Positions 16,418 to 64,000 of a DNA stretch of 64,000 nt are shown here, in pieces. The DNA is taken from positions 58,656 to 122,655 of the forward strand of contig JAJYYF010000012.1 in assembly GCA_021801225.1 (NCBI GenBank), read 5' to 3'. The notes beneath the pieces are model-generated. The model was not told the DNA's origin. It saw nothing but the letters and a program-made list of their open reading frames with translations, and ran no database searches. The stretch is from Candidatus Micrarchaeota archaeon (lineage in GTDB: Archaea > Micrarchaeota > Micrarchaeia > Micrarchaeales > CABMGC01). The translations under genes were made by a program, and so were the position numbers. Numbering within the stretch: the stretch's first letter is position 1; the number at the start of each line of letters is the position of its first letter.

Positions 16418-16560
16418 TTAAATACAATTATACCATAAACTAAGTCTATATTTAAATCTTACTTTTTATAATTTGTCTCAAAATATTTTACTATTAATTA
16501 ATAACTTAAATAAAACATTATTATTTAAAGTTTAGGTATCTATTATTTTTATGTGTTAAT

Positions 16561-17706: not shown

Positions 17707-17710
17707 TTTT

Positions 17711-20151: not shown

Positions 20152-20155
20152 TTTT

Positions 20156-34523: not shown

Positions 34524-34734
34524 AAATTTTGTTTTATAACTAAAAAAACAAGCATTTAAGAATGCTTGTATTAAAAAATAGAAAAGTATATATATAACTT
34601 GATTCTAATCAATTTGTGATTTGGTATTAATCTAAAGGGTTTTGATGTGGAGATCAACCCTAAATTATTAATTTTCATCTACAGAAAACAAAAAATATCA
34701 AATTTATATTACATTTAAATGTTTGGAAAACCGT

Positions 34735-34740
34735 GGAGGT
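34735..34740 (+). promoter_or_regulatory. Shine-Dalgarno-like GGAGGT 7 nt upstream of the ATG at 34748
   Basis: The sequence is CCGTGGAGGTAAATTTAATGGAG. This supports ATG 34748 rather than GTG 34733 as the start of the giant ORF. Confidence 0.5.
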
Positions 34741-34747
34741 AAATTTA

Positions 34748-37700
34748 ATGGAGAATAAAGGAATTTTGAAGAATAAAGGAATATTTTTAGTAATGGCTCT
34801 TATGAGCATAATGTTCATTGGCTTTGTAAGCGCTAATTCAGTTTTATTTAGTTCTAACAGTCCAATCTCTAACTCATTTGAAGTTGGTCAAACCGTAAGC
34901 GGTATGATATCAATCTCCGGAAGCGCAATAACCGGAATTAATTCTTTTGCACCTCCAAATCTAACATTTACATCAAATTCTCCTGATGTAAATACTGCAA
35001 TAGAAACTTGTAACGCAAAAGGTTATTCAACATCTCCAACCTTCGTATCAAACACAGTTACTTTTTATTGTCCAGTAACATTTACAACTTCTGGAAGTTA
35101 TAATGCAGTGGTTTCTTATAAATTCAATGATTCTACTACAACATCTAATACAGTATCAAACACTATCGATTTTTATGTAAATCCTGCACCTTCCATATCA
35201 TTTAACTTATATCCATCACCATATCCAAACTCAACAAGTAACATATTCGATGAAGGTCAAACAGTAACTGCACAAATCTCATATCTTGGAACACCTGAAG
35301 AATTGAGTATATCAAATCTTATGTTTAAATCTGCTTCATCTGATTTATTCTCTTTAAATTCAAATGGTTGTTCAGTTATTCATACTATAATAATATGTCC
35401 TATAACTTTTAATTCAGTAAACTTCGCAACGCCATCTACCATAACTGCTTACTACACAGATGAATACGGTGTTTCTACATCTAACACAATATCATTGACC
35501 GTTGATCCACTATCAATATCTGCAACACCTACAAATCAGAATTTAGATGTAGGTCAAAATTCATTAATAGCATTGAATATTAATGAAGCAAGTGGTTCAG
35601 ATAACAGGTATGTAATAAGCAATTCATTATCTTATAATGGAGCTAATATAATCTCTAACTCTATATTAACAAACTCGTCTCCAACAAACTACATATTTAC
35701 TCCAAATCAACCTGGAACATACAACGCAATTTTTACTATTACTGATACAACTACTCATTACTCTGTATCTACTTCATCAAACTGGACAGTATACTCTAAA
35801 CCCGTTGTAAACATAGCAGTAAGCAATGCATTAAACTCTGATAATTCTTACTCAACAGACGCGGGACAGTTTCTTACATTCCATATTTCATCAACAGGTG
35901 GCACTGGCGCTCCGATAAAAGTATACTTAAATTGCGATCCAACAAGCATAGGTACATTCTTAGATTGTTATGGTTCTAATTTTTATTTTGATTCTACTTC
36001 ACATGGTCCTTACGCACTTGTGTTATTAAACAGTGTAAATGGATTTTCTAACACAATTTCATTACAAACTATCAACTCTCCTGCTAGCGATGTAAATATT
36101 ACTGGCACATTTAAAGATACAGGAACCTCATCTTCTGGAACTCCAAAAGAATTTGGTCTTAATCAGATAAACTTCAATACAGTTCAAACATTATTCGGAA
36201 CACCTACTCCAACAACTTCAAATACTGTACTAGATCAAGGTCAGTTTACTTATATCTCAACAATAGGCGCTGGTCAAGGTGGTGTACTTCCATATATATG
36301 GACTTGGTTTAATTCGTATAACAACAGTGCATATTCAAAAACTTCAACTACAATATGTCCAACAAACTCTGGAAAATCAACAACTACAAATACAAATATT
36401 CTAACTGCAACTTGTGGATTCCAAACCTCAACATCAACTTCACCTGGCAGTTACAACTTCAAAGTTAATACTACTGACGCAGCTAACTTCTCACTTTTCT
36501 CAGATCCAGTTTTGGTTACAGTTAACAAAGCACTTTCTATTTCCGCATCTGCATCTAACACTCAAATAGATGTGGGACAAAGTTCATTATTAACAAATAT
36601 AACTGAAGGAGGAACAGGGCCTTACTCCTATCAATGGTCAGAAGAAACCCCAGGCACAAATACATTTACTAATATAACTGGTGCTACATCAGCTACTTAT
36701 AACTTTGTAACTACTCCTACAACATCAATAGGCACATATAATTTTGAGCTTTTTGTAAAGGATAGCGCAACAACTCCAGTAACAAAAACATCAACACCAG
36801 TATCAATTATAGTGAATCCAGATCCTACTGTATCAATAACACCAAAAACAAATACAATAATGGATGTTGGTCAATCAGTTACATTCACAGCAACTGCAAC
36901 TTCTGGAACACCACCATACTCATATCAATGGTACTCAATAAGCGGCGGTTCAAACACAATTATACCGGGATCTACTTCATCTACCTACAAATATACTCCA
37001 GATCAAAGTACAGCAATAAGTCTGGGTGTTAAAATAACAGATAATGCAAACTTTATTACATACAGTACAAACATAGCTAATATAACTGTATACTCTATGC
37101 CAACTATCAGCGTACAATCTCCATCAAACACATTTATGGACGTAGGCCAATCTACAACATTGGTATCATCTGTTTCAAAAGGTACAGGTAAGTTTTCATA
37201 TTTGTGGACAGTGTCTCCACCAGGTAGTTTAATTCCATCCTGTTCTGGACTCGTATCTAGCGATTCAAATACTATAATATATACTCCATCAAGCGATACA
37301 TCTTGTACTGCACAAGTAGCTGTAACAGATATAGGTACATCTAGCTACGCAACACCAGTAATTACAGTAACTGGAATATTTACTCCAATAACAGTATATC
37401 CAACACCAACACTTTCAGAATTAACTCCAAGCAACGCAATAATAGATCTAGGTCAGTCTGAAACCTTCAATGTAATAATAAACGGAGGAAGCAACAAAGA
37501 CATGTCATTAGCATTATATCAATCACCAGAGAACAATGTTATAGGAAACGGAGTTACTGGTGCTGGAGATGGTGTTCAAACATTTCCAAATTTTGTACCA
37601 TCATTATCAGAAAATACATTCTATGTTAATGGTCTTGACGCAGGAGTAACTACACCATTCGATATTCCACCTACAAATTTAATACACATACAAATAAATC

Positions 37701-40700
37701 CTAAATTAAGTTCTACAATTTCAGCAAGTAATGACTCTATAGCTCCTAATCAAGAATCAACATTAACAAGTAGCATAACTGGTGGAACACAACCATACTC
37801 ATATCAATGGTATATGGAAACACCTGGAACAACAAACTTTGTTCCTATCAACGGCGGAACTTCAAATACTTTTAATTTCAACTTAAACTCAATGACCTCT
37901 TCTGGAAATTATGAGTTTATTTTATCAACTACAGATAGTGCATCAACACCAGAAACAGTCAACTCAATAAGCACTTCGATTACAGTAACTCAAGCCTTTA
38001 CATCACCAAAATTAGTTCTAGACATAAACGCTAGTATTAAAAATGATCCTGACAGCGGTAATATAGGTTACTGGGCTTTGGATAATATTACAAGAAACAT
38101 ACAAGTTTGGCAAACAACATTGAGAACTCCAACAACATACAACTCTTACACATCAAACATAATTGACAATGGCATAGCAACTACATTTGCGGGCGCAGTT
38201 AGTCCAGGAAGTTTAACTCCATACGAAACAAAAGAACCATATAATGGAGTAGCTACATTAAAAGGATTTGATCAAATAACATTTACTGGAACGTTTACTC
38301 CAGGTTCTTATCCTGTTTATACAAATGGCCAACAAGTAGCATCATTTAACAACGAAGGAACTGCTTCATATATACTTTTAGGCAACTATTCTAATCAAGG
38401 TAAATCTGCGTACACTCCAGCTTCAACATTTAATCATTATCTAAACGAGTACTTTACATTAGAACCATCAACAGGTTATAACTTCCAAATATGGGGTGAT
38501 ACATATACTTACTCAGTATATCCTCCAGGCAATCAAGTAATGACAGACAATAGCATATCAAACCCTGCAGTAACTGGCGATATAATAACATATCAAGTAC
38601 CTACAGTAACTATGTCATTAGCTAACGCAGAAATTATTGATTATGGTCAAACTGAGTCATACTCTGCCAGCATATATAATGGAATAGGAAACTTCCCTAA
38701 TACAATTTTATATCAATACGGTTCAAATACAATACCAACAACAATAGACTGTTCAAGATCCTTACTCGGAGTAGGTTGTTCTGGAGCAGGTACATTCATA
38801 CCTATAAATTCAGTTAACATAGGTGCCAATGGCTTAGGAAATATAAATGGAAATACAGTTTCATTTGGATCTTTTACGCCATCAATCGGAACAGATACAT
38901 ACTTTGTATCTGCTTTTGACGGTGGAACATCCCCTCCTAACACATACTCATTCATATCAAACACAAATACAATATATGTCTATCCAGATCCAACAGTTAC
39001 AACTAATATAAACAAACCAACATCTTTGGACTTAGGAAGCAGTATAACAGTATCTGCAGTAACATCTGGAGGAACTGGTAAGTTCTCTTACTCATGGAGT
39101 ACTACTGGAACATGTCCTGGATTTACTTCATCTACAAGTAACTCATTTACATACACACCAACTGGAGTAACAAATAACTGTGTAATTAATGTATTAGTCA
39201 CTGATATTGGAGTATCTCCTAATGCCTCACCATCTGAGTATTCAGTAGCAACAGCATCAACACAAACAATAACAGTCAATCCAGCATTATCCTCACCTCC
39301 AGTTTTAGTTAGTGGTAAAAGTTTTGATCAAGGAGAAACAGTAGAAATAACAACCGGTTCGGTACAAGGCGGAACACCACCTTATACTTACAACTTCCAA
39401 GTAGAGAATAAGAACCTATCAAAATTATTTTTCACATGTACACAAATAGCATCTGGAGTATGTACATTTACAGCAACTCAAACGGGAATTTATAATGGTA
39501 CTTTATCCATAACAGACAGCGCAACAATACCATCTACTGTATACAACTCAATTCCATCTTATGCAGTAAATCCTGATTTCGGATTAGAAGGAGCTTCAAC
39601 TTCCACAAATACTTTAATTGATTCTCAAATAACTCCAGTGCTAATCACTGCAAATATAATAGGAGAAGGTGGAACACCACCTTATACTTATGACTTTACA
39701 GTTCAAAATGCAACAACAGGTAAAACAGTTTTCACCGAACAAACTCAAAACTCAATGCTAGGAAATAGTATAGTGTTTAATCCACCAAATAATGGTATTT
39801 ACCAAGCAACAGCAATTATATATGATAATGCAACTCCTCAAGAATATATACAGTCCTCATACTCAAAAGCGTTCTTAGTAGGTTCTGCTGGCGCACCAAC
39901 AGCTGTAATAACACCTTCTAAGTATGTAGTTGATAGTGGTTACACCGACAATCTAACTGCACAAGTCTTTGGAGGCGTAGGTCCATTTAATGTTGAGTTC
40001 TATAACATATCTGGCCAAAAGCAAATAGGTTCTAATGTAACTATACAATCACCTGGAGGATCTAACTCAATAAGTTTCACTACAAACACTTCGTATTCAT
40101 TAGGTCTAAGTTTTAAGATAATAGTTACAGATGAACACACAGGTGTAACATTCAACTCACTTCCAAAAGAAGTAATAATAAACCCTGCATTAGGTTCAAA
40201 CCTTACATTATCAAACTCAACAATTGATATTGGACAACCGACTGTATTATCAGCAACAATACATGGAGGAACACCACCATACTCATTCACATATGAGATA
40301 AATGGCACAACTGCAGGAGAAAACAGCAATGTAATGGCAACCGATTCATCAAATGTATTAATCCCAACAATAAACACATTTGTATTATCTGGAAATATTA
40401 TAACAAAACCTGGTACATACCCTATAAATGTTCTCGTTCAAGATATTGCAGGTGGTTCAGAAGTATTATCAAATACATTAGTAGTGAATCCTGCAATGGA
40501 ACCTACGATATTAAGTATAACTCCAAACTCATTAACTACTGCACAATCAGTATCACTTTCAAGTACGAGCGAAACATACGGAACGTCACCTTATCTGTAT
40601 AACTTTGAAATAATAAATACAACTACAAACACAATACTCGTTTCTTCAGGTTATCAAACATCAAATACCTTTACTTCTTCAGCATCAAAACTAAAAGGAG

Positions 40701-41536
40701 GAAACAACGCAGTTGTTATAGTTAAGGATTCAGCAGGAACAACATCAACTTCAAATGTAATAAACTTTAATGTAAGTCAAGCAACTACTACAACAACCAC
40801 AACACCACAAAACACCGGAGGATCTCCAGGAGGAGGTGGTGGCGGTGGAGGAGCTTCAGGCGGAGGAGGCGCAGGAGGTGGAACACCACATCCAACAGTG
40901 CTTAACTTCACTAATGCAACAGATACAGGTTATGGGGTAACAAACTTTGCAGTTCCTGCTACAACTTCAGTCACTAAATTCAATGCAACATTTAACTTGC
41001 TTATGAACTTCATCTCACCAACGCAGGTAGGAGTATCAATAAATGGAAATCCATACACACTGCAGCTTAAAAACCAATCTGTATCAATAGGTACGATAGA
41101 TGGCAATGCATATTATGTAGAGTTATCTGCAATATCATACTTGCCATTGCAGAACACAGCAACAATTTACCTATACACCTCTACACCAAAGAGCCCTAAC
41201 ACAAACACAAAGTCTTCAAACAACACAGTTAATCCAAATACGCCATCGAACGTAACAACAAAATCAAATGTAACAAACAACACAAAATCTGTCAACACAA
41301 CAGTTAATACAACATCAATAAAAACTACAACAAAACAAAATACAACATCAAACACATCTAATCAATCTGCACAAACAAATAATACAAATACAACACAAGG
41401 TACTGCACCAACAAACATCAATGACAACTCTGGTTTGTACACCGCATTAGGAGCAATAATAGTAATCATAATAATTCTAGGTATACTTTACTACTTCTTT
41501 AGTAGTAAAAAGGTACCAATAAAGAATAAAAAATGA
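34748..41536 (+). CDS. giant cell-surface protein (~2,262 aa): signal peptide, about 20 Ig/PKD-like beta-sandwich repeats, one unique ~200-aa insert, Gly linker, PHPTV module, N/T stalk, C-terminal TM anchor
   Basis: Single ORF with signal GIFLVMALMSIMFIGFVSANS. Repeat hallmarks recur: (I/M/L)D(V/L/Y)GQ(S/N)... then GG(T)(P/Q)PY(S/T)Y(Q/N/D)(W/F). The C-terminus is SGLYTALGAIIVIIIILGILYYFFSSKKVPIKNKK. Confidence 0.9.
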   Translation: MENKGILKNKGIFLVMALMSIMFIGFVSANSVLFSSNSPISNSFEVGQTVSGMISISGSAITGINSFAPPNLTFTSNSPDVNTAIETCNAKGYSTSPTFVSNTVTFYCPVTFTTSGSYNAVVSYKFNDSTTTSNTVSNTIDFYVNPAPSISFNLYPSPYPNSTSNIFDEGQTVTAQISYLGTPEELSISNLMFKSASSDLFSLNSNGCSVIHTIIICPITFNSVNFATPSTITAYYTDEYGVSTSNTISLTVDPLSISATPTNQNLDVGQNSLIALNINEASGSDNRYVISNSLSYNGANIISNSILTNSSPTNYIFTPNQPGTYNAIFTITDTTTHYSVSTSSNWTVYSKPVVNIAVSNALNSDNSYSTDAGQFLTFHISSTGGTGAPIKVYLNCDPTSIGTFLDCYGSNFYFDSTSHGPYALVLLNSVNGFSNTISLQTINSPASDVNITGTFKDTGTSSSGTPKEFGLNQINFNTVQTLFGTPTPTTSNTVLDQGQFTYISTIGAGQGGVLPYIWTWFNSYNNSAYSKTSTTICPTNSGKSTTTNTNILTATCGFQTSTSTSPGSYNFKVNTTDAANFSLFSDPVLVTVNKALSISASASNTQIDVGQSSLLTNITEGGTGPYSYQWSEETPGTNTFTNITGATSATYNFVTTPTTSIGTYNFELFVKDSATTPVTKTSTPVSIIVNPDPTVSITPKTNTIMDVGQSVTFTATATSGTPPYSYQWYSISGGSNTIIPGSTSSTYKYTPDQSTAISLGVKITDNANFITYSTNIANITVYSMPTISVQSPSNTFMDVGQSTTLVSSVSKGTGKFSYLWTVSPPGSLIPSCSGLVSSDSNTIIYTPSSDTSCTAQVAVTDIGTSSYATPVITVTGIFTPITVYPTPTLSELTPSNAIIDLGQSETFNVIINGGSNKDMSLALYQSPENNVIGNGVTGAGDGVQTFPNFVPSLSENTFYVNGLDAGVTTPFDIPPTNLIHIQINPKLSSTISASNDSIAPNQESTLTSSITGGTQPYSYQWYMETPGTTNFVPINGGTSNTFNFNLNSMTSSGNYEFILSTTDSASTPETVNSISTSITVTQAFTSPKLVLDINASIKNDPDSGNIGYWALDNITRNIQVWQTTLRTPTTYNSYTSNIIDNGIATTFAGAVSPGSLTPYETKEPYNGVATLKGFDQITFTGTFTPGSYPVYTNGQQVASFNNEGTASYILLGNYSNQGKSAYTPASTFNHYLNEYFTLEPSTGYNFQIWGDTYTYSVYPPGNQVMTDNSISNPAVTGDIITYQVPTVTMSLANAEIIDYGQTESYSASIYNGIGNFPNTILYQYGSNTIPTTIDCSRSLLGVGCSGAGTFIPINSVNIGANGLGNINGNTVSFGSFTPSIGTDTYFVSAFDGGTSPPNTYSFISNTNTIYVYPDPTVTTNINKPTSLDLGSSITVSAVTSGGTGKFSYSWSTTGTCPGFTSSTSNSFTYTPTGVTNNCVINVLVTDIGVSPNASPSEYSVATASTQTITVNPALSSPPVLVSGKSFDQGETVEITTGSVQGGTPPYTYNFQVENKNLSKLFFTCTQIASGVCTFTATQTGIYNGTLSITDSATIPSTVYNSIPSYAVNPDFGLEGASTSTNTLIDSQITPVLITANIIGEGGTPPYTYDFTVQNATTGKTVFTEQTQNSMLGNSIVFNPPNNGIYQATAIIYDNATPQEYIQSSYSKAFLVGSAGAPTAVITPSKYVVDSGYTDNLTAQVFGGVGPFNVEFYNISGQKQIGSNVTIQSPGGSNSISFTTNTSYSLGLSFKIIVTDEHTGVTFNSLPKEVIINPALGSNLTLSNSTIDIGQPTVLSATIHGGTPPYSFTYEINGTTAGENSNVMATDSSNVLIPTINTFVLSGNIITKPGTYPINVLVQDIAGGSEVLSNTLVVNPAMEPTILSITPNSLTTAQSVSLSSTSETYGTSPYLYNFEIINTTTNTILVSSGYQTSNTFTSSASKLKGGNNAVVIVKDSAGTTSTSNVINFNVSQATTTTTTTPQNTGGSPGGGGGGGGASGGGGAGGGTPHPTVLNFTNATDTGYGVTNFAVPATTSVTKFNATFNLLMNFISPTQVGVSINGNPYTLQLKNQSVSIGTIDGNAYYVELSAISYLPLQNTATIYLYTSTPKSPNTNTKSSNNTVNPNTPSNVTTKSNVTNNTKSVNTTVNTTSIKTTTKQNTTSNTSNQSAQTNNTNTTQGTAPTNINDNSGLYTALGAIIVIIIILGILYYFFSSKKVPIKNKK

Positions 41537-41620: not shown

Positions 41621-41680
41621 CTGATTAATTAAAGATAATTGTGGATATTGGGTTTACTCAATAATATTTTAGGTTGTAAG

Positions 41681-44134
41681 ATGAAATCGAATATATTTTT
41701 TATGTCTGTTTTGACGAGCATTTTTGTAATGTTTGTCTTTTTGTTTAATGTTGGTTATGTAGGAGCTGCTTCTGTAGTTTCTCCTAACGTAGTGCCATCA
41801 AATGTTTTATACTATGTTCCAATAACTGTAACAGCTAATGGTCCAGTAGTCGCTAACGCACAAGTAATGTTTACCTTCCTAAAAAATAACTATTTAAGTT
41901 ATGAAAGTCACAACCTACAAAATATAGAATTCTTTTACTCAAATGGAACTATAATTCCATCTTGGCTTGAAGGAGAATCTCTTAGTCCTTCATTAAGCTC
42001 TTTATCCGTATCCTACTGGTTAAAAATAGTAAATCCAAACTTCTTACCTTCAACAGGATCTACAAATACTGTTTATATGGGATTTGGTTCAACATCAACA
42101 AACTTCTTTAATGGTAATACAGTTGGTGAATCACCTATACTATCATCATCTTATGGAGAGTATGATAACGGAGCAAACGTTTTCAGTTATTATCAATCAT
42201 TCGGAGGTTTATCTGGAAACTCTTTGCCTACCGGATGGACAAGTGTTAATAATAAAACAGGTGGCCAGACAAGCGGTTTAGCTTTAAATACAACTGTCGT
42301 AAATAATCCTTCAAATACAGTAATTTATGTTTCTGGAAATGAAAATGGTTGCGGTTGTGGTATCTTTGAAAACGCGTTACCATCAATGAGTCCTGGAAAC
42401 ACAATAGAATGGTATGGTAATATATTCAATAATCAGCCAGCAGGTACCTTTGCAGGTTTAGAATCAATTCCATCTGGACTTCCTGTTCCTTTATATACTT
42501 GGAACTACGAAACCGGCGATGGAACAACAAAACAAAATATAGCTGCGTTTAGTTTAGGTGAGTACTTAACAACTCCAAATCAACCTGGAAACTTATCAAC
42601 AGGTCCTTATCTAGACGGTGGTCAACTTACTTCATTTACAGATTCAAATACAAATAAAATATACGGAATACAGATAAACTCAGCAACATCTTTCAATGCG
42701 CTTGTTAATTACATTAGTTATGGTCAAGATACCTCTGAAAGTTTAGGATCTCCTTCATTGTTCGTGTTTTCAGTTGGACTTAACCCAGCAGGCGTAGTTC
42801 ATTCATCACCTCAAAGTATATACTGGTTAAGAACAAGAACAAATACTAAAATGCCTACACTTTCATTCGGTTCTGTATATCCATCTCCAATGGAAGCAAA
42901 TATAGTAGAATCACCAACATTAGTATACGATGGATCTACAATTTCACTAAATGCAACTGTATCAGGGGGAGTATCTCCTTATACATACAACTTTATAATA
43001 TACAATGCAACCTCTGGTAATGTATTAATTAATACGCCTACGGGACAAAATAACAATACACTTGCTAATCCAATAAAGATATCTAATACTGGAAATTATT
43101 TAGCACAAGTCGAAGTAACAGACTCAAGTTATCCAGCAAATCAAGTTGTGTACTCTGCAAATGTTCCATTCAATGCAATTCCATTTAATGGAATAGTTAT
43201 AACAACAAATACGCCTATCATAGATTTTGGTCAAACAGTATATCTTACTGTAAACGACATAAATCCATTGAATAATGGTAAAAACAACAACTTCGATTTA
43301 TTCATAAACGGAAATAACATTAATTCCGGTGCTTCATACTCAAACTTTCCAATATCAAATACAGTAGTTCCAACAACAACCGGCAACATAGTATACACTG
43401 CTCATGGAATTATGGTATCACCTTTTGAGTATCCTACATTCTCGAATAGTGTTGTAGTTACTGTAAATCCAGCATTAAGTATTTCAGCAGCAAACTCTGG
43501 ATCATCAATAACTACTGGTTCTAGTGAGACATTAACAGCTACAGTTTCTGGAGGAACACAACCATACTCATATCAATGGTACTCAATAAGCGGTAGTTCA
43601 AACACAATTATATCTGGAGCAACTTCAAGTACATATACTCCAAGCACATCAACAACCGGAAGCTTCAGTTTTGGAGTAAATGTAATAGATGCAGCAAATG
43701 CAGTAGCATATAGTAATCCTATATCCTTTACAGTAACATCTCCTCCTACAACTACCGTCAGCAGTGGAGGATTTATTCCAACTGGAGGTCCAGCACCAAC
43801 AACATCATTAACAACAATTCCTCCTGCAGTACCACCATCAACAACACCTCCGACAACAACTACAAAAACTATTGTAAATACACAGCCTTCTAATACACTA
43901 AATACAAACACAACGAACAAAACAAAAACATCAACAAACGCATTAAACACAACAAACAAAACAAAGAACGTAACTCCTGTAGTCACAACTACCGTGGCAA
44001 AGGTAGTAAACAATACGGGTTTCCCATGGTGGATTATTTTATTAATAATCATAATCATAGTCCTGTTATTGTTGTACTGGTACATGAGAAAGAAAAAACA
44101 CGCAAAGCATCATTCTGCAAAGCATAACTCCTAA
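41681..44134 (+). CDS. cell-surface protein (~817 aa): signal peptide, DUF2341-like module, YGEYDNG lectin/LamG-like module, Ig/PKD-like repeats, P/T stalk, C-terminal TM anchor
   Basis: I prefer the start MKSNIFFMSVLTSIFVMFVFLF (ATG 41681) over GTG 41639. Motifs are YYVPITVTANG...VSYWLKIVNP, SSYGEYDNGANVFSYYQSFGG, IYWLRTRTNTKMPTLSFG and GGTQPYSYQWYSISG. The C-terminus is TGFPWWIILLIIIIIVLLLLYWYMRKKKH. Confidence 0.85.
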   Translation: MKSNIFFMSVLTSIFVMFVFLFNVGYVGAASVVSPNVVPSNVLYYVPITVTANGPVVANAQVMFTFLKNNYLSYESHNLQNIEFFYSNGTIIPSWLEGESLSPSLSSLSVSYWLKIVNPNFLPSTGSTNTVYMGFGSTSTNFFNGNTVGESPILSSSYGEYDNGANVFSYYQSFGGLSGNSLPTGWTSVNNKTGGQTSGLALNTTVVNNPSNTVIYVSGNENGCGCGIFENALPSMSPGNTIEWYGNIFNNQPAGTFAGLESIPSGLPVPLYTWNYETGDGTTKQNIAAFSLGEYLTTPNQPGNLSTGPYLDGGQLTSFTDSNTNKIYGIQINSATSFNALVNYISYGQDTSESLGSPSLFVFSVGLNPAGVVHSSPQSIYWLRTRTNTKMPTLSFGSVYPSPMEANIVESPTLVYDGSTISLNATVSGGVSPYTYNFIIYNATSGNVLINTPTGQNNNTLANPIKISNTGNYLAQVEVTDSSYPANQVVYSANVPFNAIPFNGIVITTNTPIIDFGQTVYLTVNDINPLNNGKNNNFDLFINGNNINSGASYSNFPISNTVVPTTTGNIVYTAHGIMVSPFEYPTFSNSVVVTVNPALSISAANSGSSITTGSSETLTATVSGGTQPYSYQWYSISGSSNTIISGATSSTYTPSTSTTGSFSFGVNVIDAANAVAYSNPISFTVTSPPTTTVSSGGFIPTGGPAPTTSLTTIPPAVPPSTTPPTTTTKTIVNTQPSNTLNTNTTNKTKTSTNALNTTNKTKNVTPVVTTTVAKVVNNTGFPWWIILLIIIIIVLLLLYWYMRKKKHAKHHSAKHNS

Positions 44135-44143
44135 TTAATTGGA

Positions 44144-44195
44144 TTTTATTTTTTTTATTTAGTATTTTTCTTATTTTTTCTTATTTTTTACTTTT
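44144..44195 (+). terminator. cluster of oligo-T tracts after the 41681..44134 gene
   Basis: The sequence is GATTTTATTTTTTTTATTTAGTATTTTTCTTATTTTTTCTTATTTTTTAC, with four runs of T5-T8. Confidence 0.4.
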
Positions 44196-44233
44196 AATCT
44201 ATATATAAAATTTATTAGAATAATTTTTATTCA

Positions 44234-44250
44234 AGCAAATTAATAAAATA
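44234..44250 (+). promoter_or_regulatory. candidate BRE/TATA (AGCAAAT-TAATAAAATA) about 25-30 nt upstream of ATG 44271, implying a leaderless or near-leaderless transcript
   Basis: Called from spacing to the start codon and similarity of the CAAGCAAA element to the one at 41602..41610. Confidence 0.3.
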
Positions 44251-44270
44251 CTTTATATTAAATTTACCTT

Positions 44271-46439
44271 ATGCATAAAAATAAAATTAAGAAAAAGGAG
44301 GTCCATGGCCAATCAGCAATGGAGTACTTGATGACATATGGTTGGTCAATTCTTATAGTTGCTATTGCTCTTGTTGCACTATTTGAGCTAGGCTACTTCA
44401 ACGCAAATAACTTTTCACCAAGTGCTTGTTTATCACAAGTAGGATTTTTATGCACTAATCCAATTTTAAACTCTACTGGTAATCTTACTCTTACTGTTGG
44501 AAATAACGGCGGCCAAGATCTTGTCATAACGGGTTTGGGCTGTTCAAATTCTTCAACAGTACCAACAACATACTCTCCTGTTTTACTTACATTAGGACAA
44601 GCTCAATCAAAACAAATTACTTTTGAGTGCCAATTAAATTCACAAAGTATTGGTTCTTCATTCAAAGGATCACTTTGGCTTCAATTAAATAATGGTCAAC
44701 AAGAAATGTTAGGCACAGTATCTGCTACTGCATCAACAGGTACGCCTGTCGGTCAACCTGGTAGCAATGGCAACGGTATTTTTTATTTAGTCAATACTGA
44801 AGGTGGGAATTCTGATTTCGGAAATATAATAAAAATAAATATAAATAACGGAACTATACTTAGTGCTATAGATTCGCAGAAATCACCATTTGATGATGAT
44901 CCAGTCGGTATAGCTTTATCTGGTTCATATGCATATGTTTCAAATAAATATGGTGAAAATATTCCTGTAATAAATATAAATACAAATCAAGTAATTAATA
45001 ATATCACATCGTCTTCTTTTGGTAATTTATATGGTATTGCAATGTCTGGCAATTATATTTACGTTTTAAACAGGTACGGAAATCAAGGAGCTGGAAACAT
45101 TTTAATAATAAATAAAGCAACTAATCAAATAGTAAATAGTATTTCATCATCATCTTTTCATTATCCTTTTAGTATTGCTACATCGAATCAATACTCTTAC
45201 GTGGTAAATAGATTAGCTGACAATGTAATTATTTTAAATAATGAAACAAATACTATAATTGGTAGTATTACTTCACCTTTTTTCGATTCACCTACTGGAA
45301 TTGCTGTATCTGGTAATTATGCATATCTACTAAACTCAAATGGAGGTTCAGAATCTACTGGAAATCTACTAATAATCAATACTGCAACAAATACAGTTGT
45401 AAACAGCATCTCTTCTCCTGATTTTTATTATCCAGATGGCATTTCAATATCTGGTCAATATGCGTATGTATCAAATTTTCAATCAGGACCTTCAGGATCT
45501 TCGGCAACAACTAGTAATATTATAATAATAAATATACCAACAAACACAGTTGTTGGTAGTATATCTTCAAATTCTTTAACAGTCGGTTCTACTGGAATCG
45601 CTATCTCTGGTAATACAGGATATATCGCAAATATTAATGGAGGTTCTTATAATACTGGAAATATTTTAATATTTAATACTCAAAGTAATAGTATTTTTGG
45701 AAATATAGGGCCATTAGATCAATTAAACAGTCCTACTAGCATAACTATCGAAGGATCAACTGCTTATTTGTCAGGATCTTTTGCAGATAATAACAACATC
45801 TATGTCATAAACCTCCTTAATAACAATATTAAAACAATTGAATCTTCATTTTTAGACGATACGATGTCAATTGCATCGGATAATGGAAATCTCTATGTAA
45901 CAAATTATAAAGGAGGAACTTATGGGGATGGTAATGTTATCATATTAAATTCTAGTACTTATACTCCAGTAAATTCTATTGACTCTCAGTTATTTTTTAA
46001 TCCGACTGGGGTAGCAATATCTGGCCAATACATGTATGTGTTAAATCAATATGGTAACGGAGGTACAAATGGTAACTTATTAATAATAAATACAAAAACA
46101 AATCAAATAATAAAAAGTATTGATTCACAATTATTTCAAAATCCAATAAGTATTACTATTAATTCTAATTATGCTTATATCGTAAATCAGTATGGTGGTA
46201 TTTCTAACTCCGGAAACATTATAATAATGAATATTTCTACAGATCAATTTACCAATAATGGCATATCAAGTCCATTCTTTTCTCCAAAGCAAATTGTAAT
46301 ATCTGGTACCTATGGTTACGTAACAACAACGTCAACAAATCCAGGTAATATTGTTATTATTAATACAACTACCGATCAAATAATAAATTCATTAACTGAA
46401 AATTATTTTGATTTTCCTTTTGGAATAACTTCATCTTAA
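44271..46439 (+). CDS. class III (archaeal prepilin-type) signal-peptide protein fused to an Ig-like domain and an ~11-12-blade YVTN-type beta-propeller (722 aa)
   Basis: The N-terminus is MHKNKIKKKEVHG|QSAMEYLMTYGWSILIVAIALVALFEL: a basic stretch, G|Q cleavage context, then a hydrophobic helix. About 11-12 repeats of roughly 45 aa follow, with the core G(I/V)A(I/V)SG.YAYV.N...G...II(I)N..TN.(I/V). Confidence 0.8.
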   Translation: MHKNKIKKKEVHGQSAMEYLMTYGWSILIVAIALVALFELGYFNANNFSPSACLSQVGFLCTNPILNSTGNLTLTVGNNGGQDLVITGLGCSNSSTVPTTYSPVLLTLGQAQSKQITFECQLNSQSIGSSFKGSLWLQLNNGQQEMLGTVSATASTGTPVGQPGSNGNGIFYLVNTEGGNSDFGNIIKININNGTILSAIDSQKSPFDDDPVGIALSGSYAYVSNKYGENIPVININTNQVINNITSSSFGNLYGIAMSGNYIYVLNRYGNQGAGNILIINKATNQIVNSISSSSFHYPFSIATSNQYSYVVNRLADNVIILNNETNTIIGSITSPFFDSPTGIAVSGNYAYLLNSNGGSESTGNLLIINTATNTVVNSISSPDFYYPDGISISGQYAYVSNFQSGPSGSSATTSNIIIINIPTNTVVGSISSNSLTVGSTGIAISGNTGYIANINGGSYNTGNILIFNTQSNSIFGNIGPLDQLNSPTSITIEGSTAYLSGSFADNNNIYVINLLNNNIKTIESSFLDDTMSIASDNGNLYVTNYKGGTYGDGNVIILNSSTYTPVNSIDSQLFFNPTGVAISGQYMYVLNQYGNGGTNGNLLIINTKTNQIIKSIDSQLFQNPISITINSNYAYIVNQYGGISNSGNIIIMNISTDQFTNNGISSPFFSPKQIVISGTYGYVTTTSTNPGNIVIINTTTDQIINSLTENYFDFPFGITSS

Positions 46440-46491: not shown

Positions 46492-47718
46492 ATGTGGTTT
46501 TTTAAGAAAAATTCTCCGACACCACCAGAGGAGGAATATACATTAAGTAATTTAACACCATTACTTATATCTTTATTAGATACATCACTTAATGAGTTTT
46601 ACTCAAGCTGTAGTGGTTTTGTTACTTTATTTAACAACTCAAAAAAAGAGTTTATTGAAGAGTGCAAAGTTCTTGAAAAGTACAATGGAGAACCAAATGT
46701 AGAGGACATGTGGGCTCCTAATATAAACTCAATTAAAACACAAAAAAATTCATATACAAAAACATTAATCCGAATACTTGAAAAAGAGTACGAAAGCACA
46801 TTTGATACACAATATGGGAAATACAAGGCTGAGCTTTCAATAATGGATGATACAATAGGGGAGATGCTTCGTATCAACAGTATGTTCAAGGTTGTTGTCC
46901 TTTCTTACTCTAACGAGTTAAATAAGTTCAAAAAAATATTTGCAAATATGGAAAAATCAAGAGATAAATTGAGATTATCTATTGACACAATACAACCTGA
47001 ATATAAAAAATACGAAGAGATAAGAAATAAAATAGAAAACCTTTATGGTATGATTGAAGAAGATAAATTAATGGATAGTAACATATCCTCAATAAATTCA
47101 GAGTTAAGTGTATTATTGACAAAAGATGAGTTGTCAACAAAGGAAAAATTAAAAAATATCCTTAATGAAAAAAATGAAGAGTTATCATCAGCAAAGGAAA
47201 AAATACACAACATGAAGGTAAAAATTTCTAGTTCTCTTATGCAATTAGAAAGAGCCGCAAGAAAGATGGACTACTCATATAAGGGTAAAAGAAGCCTTGT
47301 ATCATTTATTGAAAATCCTGAAGAAAACTTTAATGATGAATCAGACTATAAGGACTTCGAAAAGTTACTGGATGATATGGTTTCTTTGCTAAATATGGAT
47401 AAAATACAGATAAAAGGAAAAGAGGCAATTTTTCCAAGTATACAAAAATTAAAAACATCTGAATTTAGAGATCAAATTAAACAGCTTTCTGAGTTGAATG
47501 AACAAAAGAAATTTTTATTTGACGAAATAAACAACTTAGAAAATGAAGTTTTATCTAAAGAATCAAAGTCTAAAATCATTCAGGAAAAAGAAAAGGAAAA
47601 ACAACAGATGTTTTTGAGAAAAGAGCAGTTAAAACAACTTACAACCTCAACTAAATCAGAATTAATTGAGTTATTTCTAAAATACTATAATAGAAAAATA
47701 AAAGTTATCGGAGAATAG
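46492..47718 (+). CDS. coiled-coil protein, no signal peptide (408 aa), hypothetical
   Basis: Rich in K/E/L/N with long heptad-like stretches (KLRLSIDTIQPEYKKYEEIRNKIENLYGMIEE...; LSELNEQKKFLFDEINNLENEV...). Same strand, 52 nt after the pilin-like gene. Confidence 0.5.
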   Translation: MWFFKKNSPTPPEEEYTLSNLTPLLISLLDTSLNEFYSSCSGFVTLFNNSKKEFIEECKVLEKYNGEPNVEDMWAPNINSIKTQKNSYTKTLIRILEKEYESTFDTQYGKYKAELSIMDDTIGEMLRINSMFKVVVLSYSNELNKFKKIFANMEKSRDKLRLSIDTIQPEYKKYEEIRNKIENLYGMIEEDKLMDSNISSINSELSVLLTKDELSTKEKLKNILNEKNEELSSAKEKIHNMKVKISSSLMQLERAARKMDYSYKGKRSLVSFIENPEENFNDESDYKDFEKLLDDMVSLLNMDKIQIKGKEAIFPSIQKLKTSEFRDQIKQLSELNEQKKFLFDEINNLENEVLSKESKSKIIQEKEKEKQQMFLRKEQLKQLTTSTKSELIELFLKYYNRKIKVIGE

Positions 47719-54052: not shown

Positions 54053-55651
54053 ATGGAATTAAGTATTTCAGAAAATGTCAATGTTCAATTACAATCAATT
54101 ATGACTGGAAGGGGCTGTATAATAGGTCAAAGTGGCTCTGGAAAGTCATTTTTAATGGGCATTGTAGCTGAAGGTATAGGAAGTAAAAGGCTTCCGTTCT
54201 GTATAATCGATACTGAAGGAGAATATGCATCATTAAAATCATCAATTCCTTATGTTTTAGTTGTTGGTGGGGAAAGTTCAGATATATCATTAGATGTTGA
54301 TCTGCAGGATCTATTTACAAAATCTATACTTGACTCAATACCTATAGTATTAGATGTTTCAGAAGTTGTTAAAAAACAAGATTATGTTTATAAAGCATTA
54401 AGCACTCTCTATAAAGTTGAAGAAAAACTTAGAAAACCCTTTCTTGTTCTAATAGAAGAAGCCGATAAGTTCGCTCCACAAGTAGTCCATCAAAATATTA
54501 ACATAATAGAAGAGCTCAGCGTTCGTGGTAGAAAGCGAGGCATAGGTCTACTTATAGCTACACAACGACCTAGTAATATAAGCAAAAATGTATTGTCTCA
54601 ATGTTCATATGGGTTTATTGGAAAACTTACTATTGAAAATGATTTAAACGCAATAAGCCAACTTTTTAGTAGCAGATCTTATCTTGATGAAATAGTTAAT
54701 TTAAAAACTGGGGAGTTCATGCCTTTTGGCATAGAATTCAAGGAAAAATTCAGGGTAAAACCCAGGACCTCTTTTCATATGGGCTCTACGCCTCAAATAA
54801 ATGAGGATCAGCTTAATACAACTGTAGAACTTAACTCTATAATTAATGAATTAAATAATAAAAAAGTAATAAACAAATCAAATTTATCACAACAAGAATC
54901 TAAAGAAACAAAAACTAAATCTGAAAGTTCTAAATTAAAAAATATAACTTCAAAAATATTCTCATCAAATATCTCTGAAGATTCAGCAAGAGTTTTCGCT
55001 GAAAAATCAGCCCATAAAATTTTTGGTTTATTTGGTAAAAAAATAGAAAATGTCAGTGATATATCTATTAAATATCTTCCAGTAACATTATGTGATATTA
55101 GAATACCTACTATGAAAAAAAGAGAGTTTGAAGTTTATCAAATACCTCTTACAAAAGATGGAAATCTTATAAAAATATCTAATAAAATTACAGTTATTAA
55201 AACAAACTTAAATTACAAAAAGTTAACCTCTTCTGAGGAAAAACTTCTTTACTTAATAAAACTAGCAAAATCTATCAAAAAATCAGATTTATTTAAAAAT
55301 CAGGATTTTAAACCAAGCACAATTACTCCATCAATACGTGGATTAATATCAAAAAATCTAATCACTATAAAAAATGATAAGTTATACTCAAAAACATTCT
55401 ATGATTTTAACCTTAAAACAAAACTTTCAATAGAGACTACCAACATCCCTGAAAATAAATTGAGTGATTTATTTCTAAAACAAAATGAAATTGAATTATA
55501 TCTAAAAACATTATTCCCCTGTTCTATTTTGGATAATATTTCAGAGGTTTATCTACCATTTTATGAAATAACATTAAAGCATAAAAATAAAATAAGAGTT
55601 TTTAAGGTAGACTCAATTTTTGGAAAAGAAATTCTTCAAAAATCCTTATAA
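54053..55651 (+). CDS. HerA/FtsK-superfamily (DUF87-type) P-loop ATPase with ~270-aa C-terminal extension containing a winged-helix-like segment
   Basis: Walker A is IIGQSGSGKSFLMG, followed by CIIDTEGEYASL. Walker B is FLVLIEEADKFAP, followed by GRKRGIGLLIATQRPSNISKNVLSQC. The C-terminal LTSSEEKLLYLIKLAKSIKKSDL...ITPSIRGLISKNLITIKNDKLY looks MarR/wHTH-like. Confidence 0.7.
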   Translation: MELSISENVNVQLQSIMTGRGCIIGQSGSGKSFLMGIVAEGIGSKRLPFCIIDTEGEYASLKSSIPYVLVVGGESSDISLDVDLQDLFTKSILDSIPIVLDVSEVVKKQDYVYKALSTLYKVEEKLRKPFLVLIEEADKFAPQVVHQNINIIEELSVRGRKRGIGLLIATQRPSNISKNVLSQCSYGFIGKLTIENDLNAISQLFSSRSYLDEIVNLKTGEFMPFGIEFKEKFRVKPRTSFHMGSTPQINEDQLNTTVELNSIINELNNKKVINKSNLSQQESKETKTKSESSKLKNITSKIFSSNISEDSARVFAEKSAHKIFGLFGKKIENVSDISIKYLPVTLCDIRIPTMKKREFEVYQIPLTKDGNLIKISNKITVIKTNLNYKKLTSSEEKLLYLIKLAKSIKKSDLFKNQDFKPSTITPSIRGLISKNLITIKNDKLYSKTFYDFNLKTKLSIETTNIPENKLSDLFLKQNEIELYLKTLFPCSILDNISEVYLPFYEITLKHKNKIRVFKVDSIFGKEILQKSL

Positions 55652-61367: not shown

Positions 61368-63008
61368 TCATTTTTTACTACCTTTATTTTTACTTACCTT
61401 CATTTTATAATAGATTATAGCTATTACAACAATTATTACTAAAACTATCAAAACTATTGCTGATCCATTGCCTCCTGAGGAAGATTGTTGTTCTGTGTTG
61501 TTTGTTGATTTTCCAGATCCAGAGTTTGAAAATACTTCTGCATAGTAATCGGTAGATCCAAAGAACTGTTGATTTATTCCAGAATTTGGTTGTTTCCATT
61601 GTTCATATATTACAATTGGATAATTTCCCTGCTTTCCGTTAGGATCTATACTTACATAAAAAGTAACATTTACTGATTGATTAATACCTAAATAATTTAA
61701 GTACGCATCTCCAGATACTGGACTTATAGGATATATTGTTTGTAGTGATAAAGAAACATTATTTGCAGGTTCGTTACCTATATTTGTTATAGTTAAATTC
61801 AGTGGTGCATATGTTGCTCCAGGAGTTAAATTATCATTTATGTTTTTTATATTAAAAACTACACTTTTAGCTATACTTAATGGAATATATTCGGTAGAAT
61901 TCATTGTAGGGCCTAAATTTGCATTTTGGTAAGAAATATGTACCGGTATGGACTCGTTATTCTGTGTATTTGGTCCTGCTTGAATTGTTATCATCTCTGT
62001 TGTAGAACTCTCAGATCCCAGGGTTCCTACAAAAACCTTAGTATTTGAATTTGTTACAAAAATATTATTTCCATTTAAAAAGTTGAGTTGAAGATTCTGT
62101 GCATCTCCACTGCCAATATTTTGTACAAGTAACTCTAATGTTTGATTTCCTCCAGAATATAATATGCTAGGATTTGTTTTTATTATACTCAATTTTATTT
62201 CAGGATTATTTACTAATATAGACATAGATAAATTTCTGTAAATTTTAGACATACTTCCATTTTGATTCTGGTATGTTATTACTGTGCTTAGATTACTCAA
62301 GCCTTTTGTTATATTGCTTAACGTAAATAAGTCTGCATTTACTGTTTGTGAAGAGCCGGCCTGTATATTTCCTAAACTAAACTCATCTGGTCCAGATACT
62401 GTAAAGTACTTATTATTTAGTACCTGAATACTTGCATTATACGCTTCACCAGTTCCAGAATTTGTCACTGTAAGCTGAATATTACTTGTTTGCCCTGGTT
62501 GAATTGTAGTTCCTGAAGGTAAATAGCCATTAACATTCAATTCAGGCATACCGTAAATATAAATTGTTATTGGTATTGTAGAAGAACCTGTTATTGTTTG
62601 GGTTGAACCACTAGCTGTTGTTGTAGTTTGATACGTGGCTAAAACATCCATAGTATATGTACCCGAAGGTATATTTTTAGGTATATTTATGTCATATGTA
62701 AAGTAAGTGTTACTCCCACCATATATACCCTGAGACATCGAATTTATCAGAGTTGATTGTGTAGGTGAAAAATTAAGCAAAGGATAACTTCCTGAAAGCT
62801 GTATATTTACATTATTTAATGTTGATGAGTAAGAGTCATATATTTGGAAAGAAATTACTGCTTTAGAACCAGCATATAATGGATTTGGGCTAATCTGTAA
62901 ATTGGTTATAGATAACGCACCAGATACTGACTGCGCATATATGCTACTAACGCTACCTAAAAAAATAGCTACCGTAATTCCTAATAATATACAATTTATC
63001 CTGTTCAT
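61368..63008 (-). CDS. COG1361/CARDB-type repeat envelope protein (S-layer-domain-like) with C-terminal TM anchor
   Basis: 546 aa with a signal peptide. Four repeats have the pattern L.V.N.G.G.A.N..(I/L)... (for example LTVTNSGTGEAYNASIQVL, LLVQNIGSGDAQNLQLNFL, LTITNIGNEPANNVSLSLQ). The C-terminus is AIVLIVLVIIVVIAIIYYKMKVSKNKGSKK. Confidence 0.6.
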   Translation of the reverse strand: MNRINCILLGITVAIFLGSVSSIYAQSVSGALSITNLQISPNPLYAGSKAVISFQIYDSYSSTLNNVNIQLSGSYPLLNFSPTQSTLINSMSQGIYGGSNTYFTYDINIPKNIPSGTYTMDVLATYQTTTTASGSTQTITGSSTIPITIYIYGMPELNVNGYLPSGTTIQPGQTSNIQLTVTNSGTGEAYNASIQVLNNKYFTVSGPDEFSLGNIQAGSSQTVNADLFTLSNITKGLSNLSTVITYQNQNGSMSKIYRNLSMSILVNNPEIKLSIIKTNPSILYSGGNQTLELLVQNIGSGDAQNLQLNFLNGNNIFVTNSNTKVFVGTLGSESSTTEMITIQAGPNTQNNESIPVHISYQNANLGPTMNSTEYIPLSIAKSVVFNIKNINDNLTPGATYAPLNLTITNIGNEPANNVSLSLQTIYPISPVSGDAYLNYLGINQSVNVTFYVSIDPNGKQGNYPIVIYEQWKQPNSGINQQFFGSTDYYAEVFSNSGSGKSTNNTEQQSSSGGNGSAIVLIVLVIIVVIAIIYYKMKVSKNKGSKK

Positions 63009-63016
63009 TTTTTCAC

Positions 63017-64000
63017 CTAATTAATATTTTTTTTGAATAATATAAAACTTAATAAAATTCCAGCTAAAAGAAATATTCCAAAAACTGAAAAATCTATTAT
63101 TGTTGAAGATATTGGTAAATAGCCTACTAACATTATATCTCTTATCGCACTAACTGCATAAGATAATGGATTTACATTACTTATTAGATTTAAATATCCT
63201 GGGAAAGCTGTTGTTGGTAATAATGCTCCAGATATAAACCAAAGAGCCAGACCTATTAAAAATGCAAAAATAGTATATGCCTCTATTTTTTTAATTTTTG
63301 AGGCCATAAGAGTTGCTATACCACTAAATCCAATAGATATAACTATTGCAATTACAAAAATTAATAAAACTCCAAGCATACCCATTGCTATAGTAGCACC
63401 GTCTGCAAGACCTATAAGCAAAGCTAAAAATACATATAATACTGACTGAGTAGTTCCTGCAAGTATTTTTCCGACTATTATCGAATTTTTATTTATTGGA
63501 GCTATCAAAAAAGATTTTAGAGTTCCTAAATCCCTATCGTTTATTAATGATATTCCTCCACCAAATAATGCACCAAAAGCAGCTACAAGACCTAGAACAC
63601 CGGCTATCAAGAAACTTTTATAATTTGTACTTGCTCCATAAAGTTCAATATCCGAAACCGGTGATGCTTTATTTACTTCTTGATTTGAAAATGCCTGTTC
63701 TGCAAGATTTGTATTTCCGCCTAATGTGCTTATAGTTGACTGTACTGTTGATAGAACGCTGCCTATTGCACTAAAACCAGTTGCACTGTAATATATATCT
63801 ACTGTGGGGTTATTATTGTTTGTATTGGGAAATCCAGGTAATATAACTATTACTGCACTAGTCTGACTATTATGTAGTTGATTTATTGCTGAATTCTCAG
63901 AAGTTATATTGCTTATTAATAAGGTCTGAGTTTGAACTAAATCATTTATGAAAGCATAAGACTGGGGATTTTGTGCATAATTGACAACTAGCACATGGCT
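63017..64000 (-). CDS. ABC-2-type transporter permease (N-terminus probably outside the window)
   Basis: A large extracytoplasmic loop is followed by 5 TM helices (GVLGLVAAFGALFGGG..., ILAGTTQSVLYVFLALLIGL..., and others), which is typical ABC-2 topology. The first TM is apparently missing and the ORF is open to the window edge. Confidence 0.65.
   Translation of the reverse strand, partial: SHVLVVNYAQNPQSYAFINDLVQTQTLLISNITSENSAINQLHNSQTSAVIVILPGFPNTNNNNPTVDIYYSATGFSAIGSVLSTVQSTISTLGGNTNLAEQAFSNQEVNKASPVSDIELYGASTNYKSFLIAGVLGLVAAFGALFGGGISLINDRDLGTLKSFLIAPINKNSIIVGKILAGTTQSVLYVFLALLIGLADGATIAMGMLGVLLIFVIAIVISIGFSGIATLMASKIKKIEAYTIFAFLIGLALWFISGALLPTTAFPGYLNLISNVNPLSYAVSAIRDIMLVGYLPISSTIIDFSVFGIFLLAGILLSFILFKKNIN

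Follow-up and report, generated by a model that had tools for sequence, protein, structure and literature searches.

The locus and its gene

The gene considered here lies in a 64,000-nucleotide stretch of DNA from a Candidatus Micrarchaeota archaeon (GenBank assembly GCA_021801225.1, contig JAJYYF010000012.1, positions 58,656 to 122,655 of the forward strand), called the window throughout. Its product is on balance likely to be a modular type IV pilin, in which a pilin module is joined through a linker to a 12-blade beta-propeller. The open reading frame (ORF) at 44271-46439 encodes 722 amino acids (aa) and opens with an ATG that is the first start codon after the preceding stop. Homologues of the 722-aa protein are found with E-values down to 6e-161, and every one with a named source comes from a metagenome bin of Micrarchaeota, a lineage of DPANN archaea. 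Such homologues, together with a match to the Pfam family PF08309 above its gathering threshold, rule out a chance origin of the feature. The parts of the gene are as follows, with the basis of each assignment in brackets (AF2, AlphaFold2; pLDDT, the predicted local distance difference test score of its models).

44271..46439, + strand: modular pilin gene, 722 aa, stop codon included (ORF list; homologues)
44271..44309, + strand: leader peptide, aa 1-13, MHKNKIKKKEVHG (sequence reading; family statistics at -1 and -2)
44310..44399, + strand: mature N-terminus and hydrophobic alpha-1, aa 14-43, QSAMEYLMTYGWSILIVAIALVALFELGYF, with Q+1 and E+5; predicted polymerisation core (AF2; invariant residues)
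44424..44735, + strand: pilin head, a beta-sandwich, aa 52-155 (AF2; Foldseek; profile search)
44736..44777, + strand: flexible Gly/Ser/Pro-rich linker, aa 156-169 (pLDDT)
44778..46436, + strand: propeller region, aa 170-722, 12 four-stranded YVTN/LVIVD-type blades (repeat units; AF2; PF08309; Foldseek)

The leader, the predicted cleavage site and the alpha-1 helix

The N-terminus of the protein reads MHKNKIKKKEVHG|QSAMEYLMTYGWSILIVAIALVALF. The leader is basic, with six lysines, and carries Gly at position -1 and His at position -2; cleavage is predicted after Gly13, before Gln14. The leader is followed by the invariant motif QSAMEYLMTYGW and, with it, a hydrophobic helix. Both the sequence and the structure predictions place a hydrophobic alpha-1 of the class III type from +1 onward, the helix spanning residues 16-39 in the AF2 model of the full-length protein and in that of residues 1-175. 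When 20 diverse N-termini from the family are aligned, Q14, S15, A16, E18, Y19, L20, T22, Y23, G24, W25, G41, F43, C53, C61 and G133 are invariant. Q14 and E18 show no variation in alignment A3, and in alignment A2 their conservation is 90% or higher.

The earlier note, working from this one N-terminus, had proposed a class III (prepilin-type) signal, and at the level of the family the proposal is well borne out. Beyond the invariant Q+1, E+5 and TYGW, the cleavage site itself is conserved: in the 59 of 101 motif-bearing genes whose leader is long enough to be scored, position -1 is Ala, Gly or Ser in 51 (A 40, S 8, G 3, with L in another 5) and position -2 is Lys or Arg in 46 (K 30, R 16). 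Leader lengths across the family span about 3 to 60 aa. The pilin-like fold of the module, the tandem stand-alone pilins of relatives, the FlaI/TadA-type ATPases that adjoin some of them and the presence of A24 peptidases in the lineage (PMC5498576) all point the same way. Within the window, a search for further class III N-termini by regular expression and tblastn returned the pilin gene alone.

The pilin head and the linker

The alpha-1 helix leads into a compact beta-sandwich that extends to about residue 153 in the full-length AF2 model. In the model of residues 1-175, built from a 34-sequence alignment with a mean pLDDT of 81.7, most of this head has a pLDDT above 90. The head holds all four cysteines of the protein (53, 61, 91 and 120), which could pair into two disulfides. 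The same region had been described previously as a ~100-aa Ig-like domain, an assignment that the Foldseek comparison replaces with a globular pilin head. When residues 1-175 were compared with the PDB, ranks 1-4 of 350,542 chains went to archaeal type IV pilins whose structures had been solved within filaments (E 2e-4 to 2e-3): first the Sulfolobus islandicus LAL14/1 pilus (6nav, E 2e-4, 25% identity), then the Pyrobaculum calidifontis pilus (8fk7), the S. acidocaldarius Aap filament (8q30) and the Haloferax volcanii pilus (8fj5). In a profile search with the module sequence, too, 8q30 came first, though with an E-value of only 0.14. These solved adhesive pilins share with the window protein an N-terminal helix joined to a beta-sandwich head of about 130-140 aa, but they are only 14-25% identical to it and have no C-terminal extension.

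From these fold matches, the protein as modelled contains every part of a pilin, from the leader through the alpha-1 helix to the head, ahead of the flexible linker and the propeller. The linker stands out in both AF2 models, where pLDDT falls below 50 at residues 154-168 and 160-175. As an observation on the whole 722-aa chain, N-X-S/T sequons are depleted: there are 10, where composition-preserving shuffles give 20.4 +/- 3.6, although Asn makes up 13% of the residues and Ser plus Thr 22%. The pilin head holds four of the ten.

The propeller

The C-terminal three quarters of the protein is built from repeats. A regular-expression scan and a hidden Markov model (HMM) made from the units both delimit 12 repeats of 42-51 aa with the anchor GN(I/L)xI(I/F)N, the anchors falling at residues 184, 229, 275, 317, 364, 415, 463, 508, 554, 601, 648 and 692. 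The full-length AF2 model (24-homologue alignment, mean pLDDT 80.6) resolves 48 strands, or 12 four-stranded blades, from residue 170 to 721, mostly with pLDDT 80-95. The earlier estimate of ~550 aa in 11-12 blades of ~45 aa was therefore close, the structure prediction giving 553 aa and 12 blades. The assignment to the YVTN type is likewise upheld: PF08309 (LVIVD) matches with 24.1 bits against a cut-off of 20.2, the NCBIfam models TIGR03866 (YVTN/PQQ) and YncE give weak propeller matches that stay well below their cut-offs, and Foldseek with the full-length model finds the Methanosarcina mazei surface-layer protein 1l0q (E 1e-15, 19% identity). That protein has four-stranded YVTN-type blades as well, but they form a single 7-blade propeller on a Sec-secreted surface-layer protein.

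The 12 blades as modelled probably form two propellers. Unit 12 ends after its third strand and lacks a fourth. The segment GIFYLVN (170-176), which resembles the YAYVxN strand and lies before unit 1, appears to supply the missing strand in a 'velcro' closure. In clamshell double propellers an N-terminal strand completes the last blade. Two propellers are favoured indirectly, because this arrangement recurs here, because the best Foldseek matches, which include tandem WD double propellers, are double, and because the blade counts detected in pilin-bearing homologues cluster, mostly at 5-8, 9-12 and 18. No tandem repeat with a blade-sized (~135-bp) period was detected in the DNA of the gene, which implies that the blades are old and diverged.

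Two homologues of the window protein (P0004 and P0006) are 94% identical over 674 aligned residues and differ by a single 46-aa gap that corresponds to one blade (12 against 11 detected). This could reflect either real variation in blade copy number or the collapse of a repeat during metagenome assembly.

A large family of pilin modules in Micrarchaeota

The pilin module defines a large family, of which propeller-bearing proteins are one part. When one representative genome of each GTDB species was scanned for the pattern EYL[ML]TYGW, at least 574 loci were confirmed. The 79 loci kept comprise 76 from Micrarchaeota, two from a bin labelled 'Acidiferrales bacterium' and one from an unclassified archaeon. 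In an exhaustive phmmer search with residues 1-175 against 1.84 billion cluster representatives, 4251 clusters (at 50% identity) matched at E <= 1e-3, a number that falls to 799 at E <= 1e-10. In each of the best 150 of these 4251 clusters the module lies at the N-terminus, and among the same 150 best representatives fused forms far outnumber stand-alone ones. No Pfam model (E <= 1) or NCBIfam model (E <= 0.1) matches the family. The two contigs labelled 'Candidatus Acidiferrales bacterium' (L008, DATLRT010000016.1; L064, DATLRT010000045.1) carry modules 46% and 34% identical to that of the window and are probably mis-binned archaeal contigs.

Both bare and fused forms occur among the 101 motif genes of the 79 loci. 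Stand-alone pilins with a mature length of 140-200 aa account for 43, often in tandem (four at locus L053), and the rest are mostly fused, with mature lengths of up to 878 aa. The fused partners in relatives include LamG/DUF2341, Kelch, YVTN, Flg_new_2, Ig-like and Gly-rich regions. Indeed, many homologues of the window protein align only over its first 11-24% and then continue into unrelated domains. Even among its closest relatives the two halves have changed at different rates, the first 140 mature residues being 73-81% identical and the propeller 39-45%. A carrier that stays conserved while its head changes quickly is what one would expect of an adhesin or a recognition module.

The expansion is best seen in a single metagenome-assembled genome (MAG), YP2.bin58, which holds 11 distinct pilin-module genes, one stand-alone and ten fused (232-631 aa mature), at loci L033, L036, L037, L038, L041, L044, L045, L049, L056, L060 and L061. 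Ten of the 11 have QSAMEYLMTYGWAILIIAVVLAALFELGVFNGSNLAPQACIAQAG as their first ~45 mature residues, with one or two substitutions in some; the gene at L049 diverges after ~30. Such near-identity points to gene conversion or to a polymerisation helix under strong constraint, and an alpha-1 shared among so many paralogues can be taken as an argument that all of them dock into one filament core.

The 408-aa coiled-coil protein that follows the gene in the window and the ClC channel among its neighbours there are not kept as neighbours in homologue loci, and a 700-aa divergent neighbour of the homologue P0002, considered as a possible pilin, is a plain signal-anchor protein.

Pilus machinery near the relatives

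Links between the module and pilus assembly come from related loci. At L016 a 550-aa module protein is followed directly by a 458-aa ATPase, and at L043 three module-LamG genes are followed by a 441-aa ATPase and, ~1.5 kb further on, by a stand-alone 181-aa pilin. PF00437 is matched by both ATPases (E 2e-35 and 1e-32). Among NCBIfam models FlaI (NF058587) fits them best (E 2e-61) but stays below its cut-off, which marks them as T2SSE/FlaI-like but non-archaellar. Candidates for an A24 prepilin peptidase lie within 10 kb of module genes at L006 (27.3 bits) and L013 (25.3 bits), on either side of the cut-off of 26.5; in these Micrarchaeota loci they are of a short form with roughly six transmembrane (TM) segments. 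No platform protein was seen in the relative loci examined. Mia14, a Micrarchaeon in culture, is reported to carry two loci for type IV pili, of which one is of the Methanococci/Thermococci type, together with a single FlaK-like peptidase; its LamG proteins are expanded, and some are linked to the pilus loci (PMC5498576). Members of the module family occur in both Mia14 and A_DKE.

Three 9-TM GxGD proteins near pilin genes, considered as candidates for EppA, proved on inspection to belong to the presenilin-type signal-peptide peptidases (PF06550) rather than to the A24 enzymes. They lie at L005 (1240-2232), L006 (18775-19779) and L070 (8237-9226), with E-values of about 1e-14 to 5e-16 and 8-9 TM segments by hydropathy. 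They are found within 10 kb of module genes at three of the 79 loci, a co-occurrence that may be due to chance. In the window itself the sole ATPase of its kind, a HerA-like protein at 54053-55651 (DUF87), is unrelated to pilus machinery.

Relation to known systems

Large pilins with added domains are established in bacteria, where Streptococcus sanguinis PilB and PilC and a pilin of Candidatus Falkowbacteria with 12 LVIVD repeats have been described (Raynaud et al. 2021, PMC8179133). The window protein has the same layout of an N-terminal pilin module, a short linker and a bulky module foreign to the pilus. The Falkowbacteria protein, from the candidate phyla radiation (CPR), comes closest: it has 12 copies of IPR013211, belongs, like the window protein, to an ultrasmall episymbiont lineage and has been proposed to serve in adhesion or ligand binding presented on a pilus. 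IPR013211 is LVIVD, the same repeat family that PF08309 detects in the window protein. The differences are also clear. The archaeal module has a beta-sandwich head, Q+1 and no match to IPR012902; an A24 peptidase of the FlaK/PibD/EppA type would be expected to process it; and the Micrarchaeota family has undergone a much larger expansion per genome, one MAG holding no fewer than 10 fused paralogues.

With respect to the cleavage site, the nearest parallel is the Epd pilins of Methanococcus, which are processed by EppA at KG|QI and RA|QI sites and have Gln at +1 and Glu at +5 (PMC4371748). The Epd pilins of M. maripaludis ('system 1') share with the Micrarchaeota family the (K/R)(G/A)|Q site, the +1 Gln and the +5 Glu, and their genes, too, are scattered away from the assembly locus. 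In Haloferax as in Methanococcus, the genes for the major pilins are likewise scattered (PMC4371748). Type IV filaments of system 1 have been reported in methanogens and some DPANN. Unlike the window protein, the Epd pilins are small, and PF04021 (Class_IIIsignal) has no match to it; the Micrarchaeota A24 candidates are of a roughly 6-TM form as against the 9-TM form of EppA, and the head of the present family is a conserved, Cys-containing beta-sandwich.

Two further systems bear a looser resemblance. The Sulfolobus bindosome consists of large sugar-binding proteins that bear class III signals, such as GlcS and AraS (PMC4371748), and a 2026 preprint finds proteins whose signal peptides are of class III (SPIII) and which have functional C-terminal domains, mainly substrate-binding proteins, to be widespread. 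Like these, the window protein is several times the size of a pilin, has a class III signal, would depend on type IV filament machinery and is encoded away from it. Bindosome subunits, however, are substrate-binding proteins with only the signal and the helix and are encoded beside ABC transporters; Pfam and NCBIfam give no substrate-binding-protein domain in the window protein, and the gene has no transporter context. For a protein that the earlier note called far too large for a conventional filament subunit, there are precedents in the bacterial modular pilins (PMC8179133) and the bindosome (PMC4371748).

PilY1/PilC is a propeller-bearing tip adhesin of pili that is not itself a pilin. Its likeness to the present protein is one of functional analogy only: the PilY1 propeller family (IPR008707) has no match in the Pfam and NCBIfam scans of the window protein, which has a pilin N-terminus.

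A probable pilus-displayed propeller and its alternatives

Taken together, the findings make the protein most likely a pilus-borne adhesin. The precursor would enter the membrane through its hydrophobic N-terminal segment, and an A24-family prepilin peptidase would cut the 13-residue basic leader after Gly13, baring Gln14. A FlaI/TadA-type ATPase and the platform machinery would then pull alpha-1 out of the membrane, and the helix would join the helical core of a pilus made mainly of stand-alone 140-200-aa pilins of the same family. In such a pilus the beta-sandwich head would fit the filament surface, and the ~14-residue linker would keep the 60-kDa 12-blade propeller off the filament; a place at the tip or close to it is the most plausible. 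The propeller may act as a ligand-binding or adhesion module, for instance in contact with a host cell or a surface. In this scheme we infer the cleavage of the leader, the incorporation into a filament, the position along it and the ligand, whereas the domain architecture, the pilin-like fold, the conservation of the cleavage site across the family, the stand-alone paralogues and the adjacency of ATPases in relatives are shown by the analysis.

Several observations weigh against this interpretation. The window's copy has an atypical His at -2, where the family mostly has Lys or Arg, and a strict rule of the FlaFind type, which we take to require K, R, D or E at that position, might fail it. 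No PF04021, PF07790, TIGR02537 or similar model matches the N-terminus in searches of Pfam (E <= 1, with aa 1-60 and 1-175) or NCBIfam (E <= 0.1). When all ORFs of at least 90 aa in the 64-kb window were compared with Pfam, none was a T2SSE, a T2SSF or other platform protein, or an A24 peptidase. It is in these two respects, the His at -2 and the machinery missing from the window, that the class III reading fits this copy less well than it fits the family. Propeller-pilin genes are also scattered, occurring in four unrelated contexts (the window, L001-3, L083 and L085), and no pilus genes were found in any of the four. The Foldseek matches to pilins, for their part, are weak in absolute terms, with TM-scores (by target) of 0.37-0.48 and a root-mean-square deviation of ~16 Å, mainly because the angle between helix and head differs. 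Finally, at least 10 fused paralogues per genome are many for a role confined to the tip.

The main rival to this reading is that the class III signal and pilin module serve only as a cleaved anchor in the membrane or on a short stalk, as in the bindosome. The pilus machinery would then build a short pseudopilus or a surface layer, and propeller, LamG, Kelch and Ig heads would coat the cell. The ten or more fused paralogues of YP2.bin58 with their almost identical alpha-1, the great excess of fused over stand-alone forms among the 150 best cluster representatives, and the scattering of the genes at a distance from the machinery are all in keeping with such a display. So is the occurrence of effector modules on C-terminally anchored surface proteins as well, including the one encoded directly upstream in the window (41639-44134), and there are precedents in the Sulfolobus bindosome and in the 2026 survey of SPIII proteins 'functionalising' type IV filament machineries. 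What makes this alternative rather unlikely is that the family, unlike bindosome subunits, has retained the pilin head in full and that this head matches subunits of filaments, that stand-alone pilins are abundant and arranged in tandem arrays, and that there is neither a substrate-binding-protein domain (Pfam, NCBIfam) nor an adjacent ABC transporter. The reading of the earlier note needs one refinement here: with the whole pilin domain kept, the protein is a modular pilin, not a foreign protein behind a bare signal peptide.

An uncleaved signal anchor, by which the helix of a type II membrane protein would tether the propeller to the membrane with neither processing nor a filament, could explain the His at -2, the lack of machinery in the 64-kb window and the lack of a match to any curated class III model. 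Yet a plain anchor would have no need of an invariant Q+1, E+5 and TYGW behind a (K/R)(A/G/S) site, kept across thousands of proteins with leaders of about 3 to 60 aa, nor of a conserved pilin-like head, and it would not lead one to expect stand-alone proteins of 140-200 aa beside FlaI-like ATPases; we regard it as improbable. The helical rise of type IV pili is roughly 5 Å. A thick filament with a double propeller on every subunit, with the protein as its major component, is very improbable, for although alpha-1 is fully pilin-like and the flexible linker could let bulky heads splay outward, a 60-kDa head per subunit would be sterically demanding at that rise, the stand-alone family pilins of relatives are natural major subunits, and the propeller forms are single, scattered genes in the contexts examined.

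Returning to the pilus-displayed adhesin, a broader idea can be put forward, if only tentatively: the type IV pilin module of Micrarchaeota might have become the scaffold on which a large part of the cell-surface proteome is displayed, dozens of paralogues per genome having one nearly identical polymerisation helix but interchangeable, fast-evolving heads (propellers of 6, 12 or 18 blades, LamG, Kelch, beta-helix). Were this so, a single pilus system would present a combinatorial and possibly switchable host-recognition repertoire, and the propeller pilin would be a determinant of host specificity for attachment to wall-less Thermoplasmatales and would have evolved in parallel with the CPR modular pilins that carry LVIVD repeats.

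Micrarchaeota and other DPANN archaea live attached to host cells, and electron microscopy has shown pilus-like connections with Thermoplasmatales; DPANN pilins, however, are usually reported as 'not annotated' (PMC9563170). In this setting the module family offers a concrete list of candidate host-recognition proteins, and a good lead toward the molecules of DPANN host contact, while (K/R)(A/G/S)|QSAMEYLMTYGW is a simple signature for finding further members. The principle of the large modular pilin is already established, as the parallel with CPR bacteria makes plain, and the value of the present analysis lies in annotation and the discovery of candidates, not in a new principle or a new kind of system. 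What is new is the specific archaeal family and its scale: a full pilin head, no matching model in Pfam or NCBIfam, a great expansion in Micrarchaeota, with a 12-blade propeller as one type of head.

Surroundings of the gene

The neighbours of the pilin gene in the window are surface proteins, a coiled-coil protein and a ClC channel. A short spacer separates the gene from the one upstream:

44135..44270, + strand: 136-bp AT-rich intergenic spacer with T-runs past the upstream stop codon and TATA-like stretches (sequence reading)

The spacer possibly holds a promoter of the pilin gene's own, although TATA-like stretches are statistically meaningless at the ~30% G+C of the window.

Directly upstream, at 41639-44134 (+), lies a gene for an 831-aa protein with a Sec-type signal, a C-terminal TM anchor and a basic tail. 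It has several modules in common with a pilin-fused homologue (P0049): a DUF2341/LamG-like module, 33% identical over 181 aa (E 1e-14), an Ig-like repeat, 46% identical (E 2e-10), and the terminal motif 'YW(L/V)RTR...MP..FG'. Effector modules of the same kind are thus mounted on two different display scaffolds. Directly upstream again on the same strand, 34733-41536 (+) encodes a giant surface protein of 2267 aa with a signal peptide, a C-terminal TM anchor and weak SprB and Ig matches, and with the next two genes it makes up a 12-kb block of surface proteins. G+C is ~0.35 over 36-44 kb, compared with ~0.30 in the rest of the window. Immediately 3' of the pilin gene, 46492-47718 (+) encodes the 408-aa protein already mentioned, which is rich in Lys and Glu, probably a coiled coil, and has no family in Pfam or NCBIfam.

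Elsewhere in the window, a 1484-aa ORF at 9390-13844 (-), with no Pfam family, has a signal-anchor-like N-terminal segment and a very acidic C-terminal tail rich in Asn, Asp and Glu. A 546-aa surface protein of the CARDB / NPCBM-associated Ig type, which has a signal peptide and is anchored by a C-terminal TM segment, is encoded at 61368-63008 (-) and adjoins an ABC-2 permease (63017-63994). A central-metabolism cluster occupies 15062-20995 and includes an Mqo-like FAD oxidoreductase, citrate synthase, an isocitrate/isopropylmalate dehydrogenase, MmgE/PrpD and a ComA-like phosphosulfolactate synthase.

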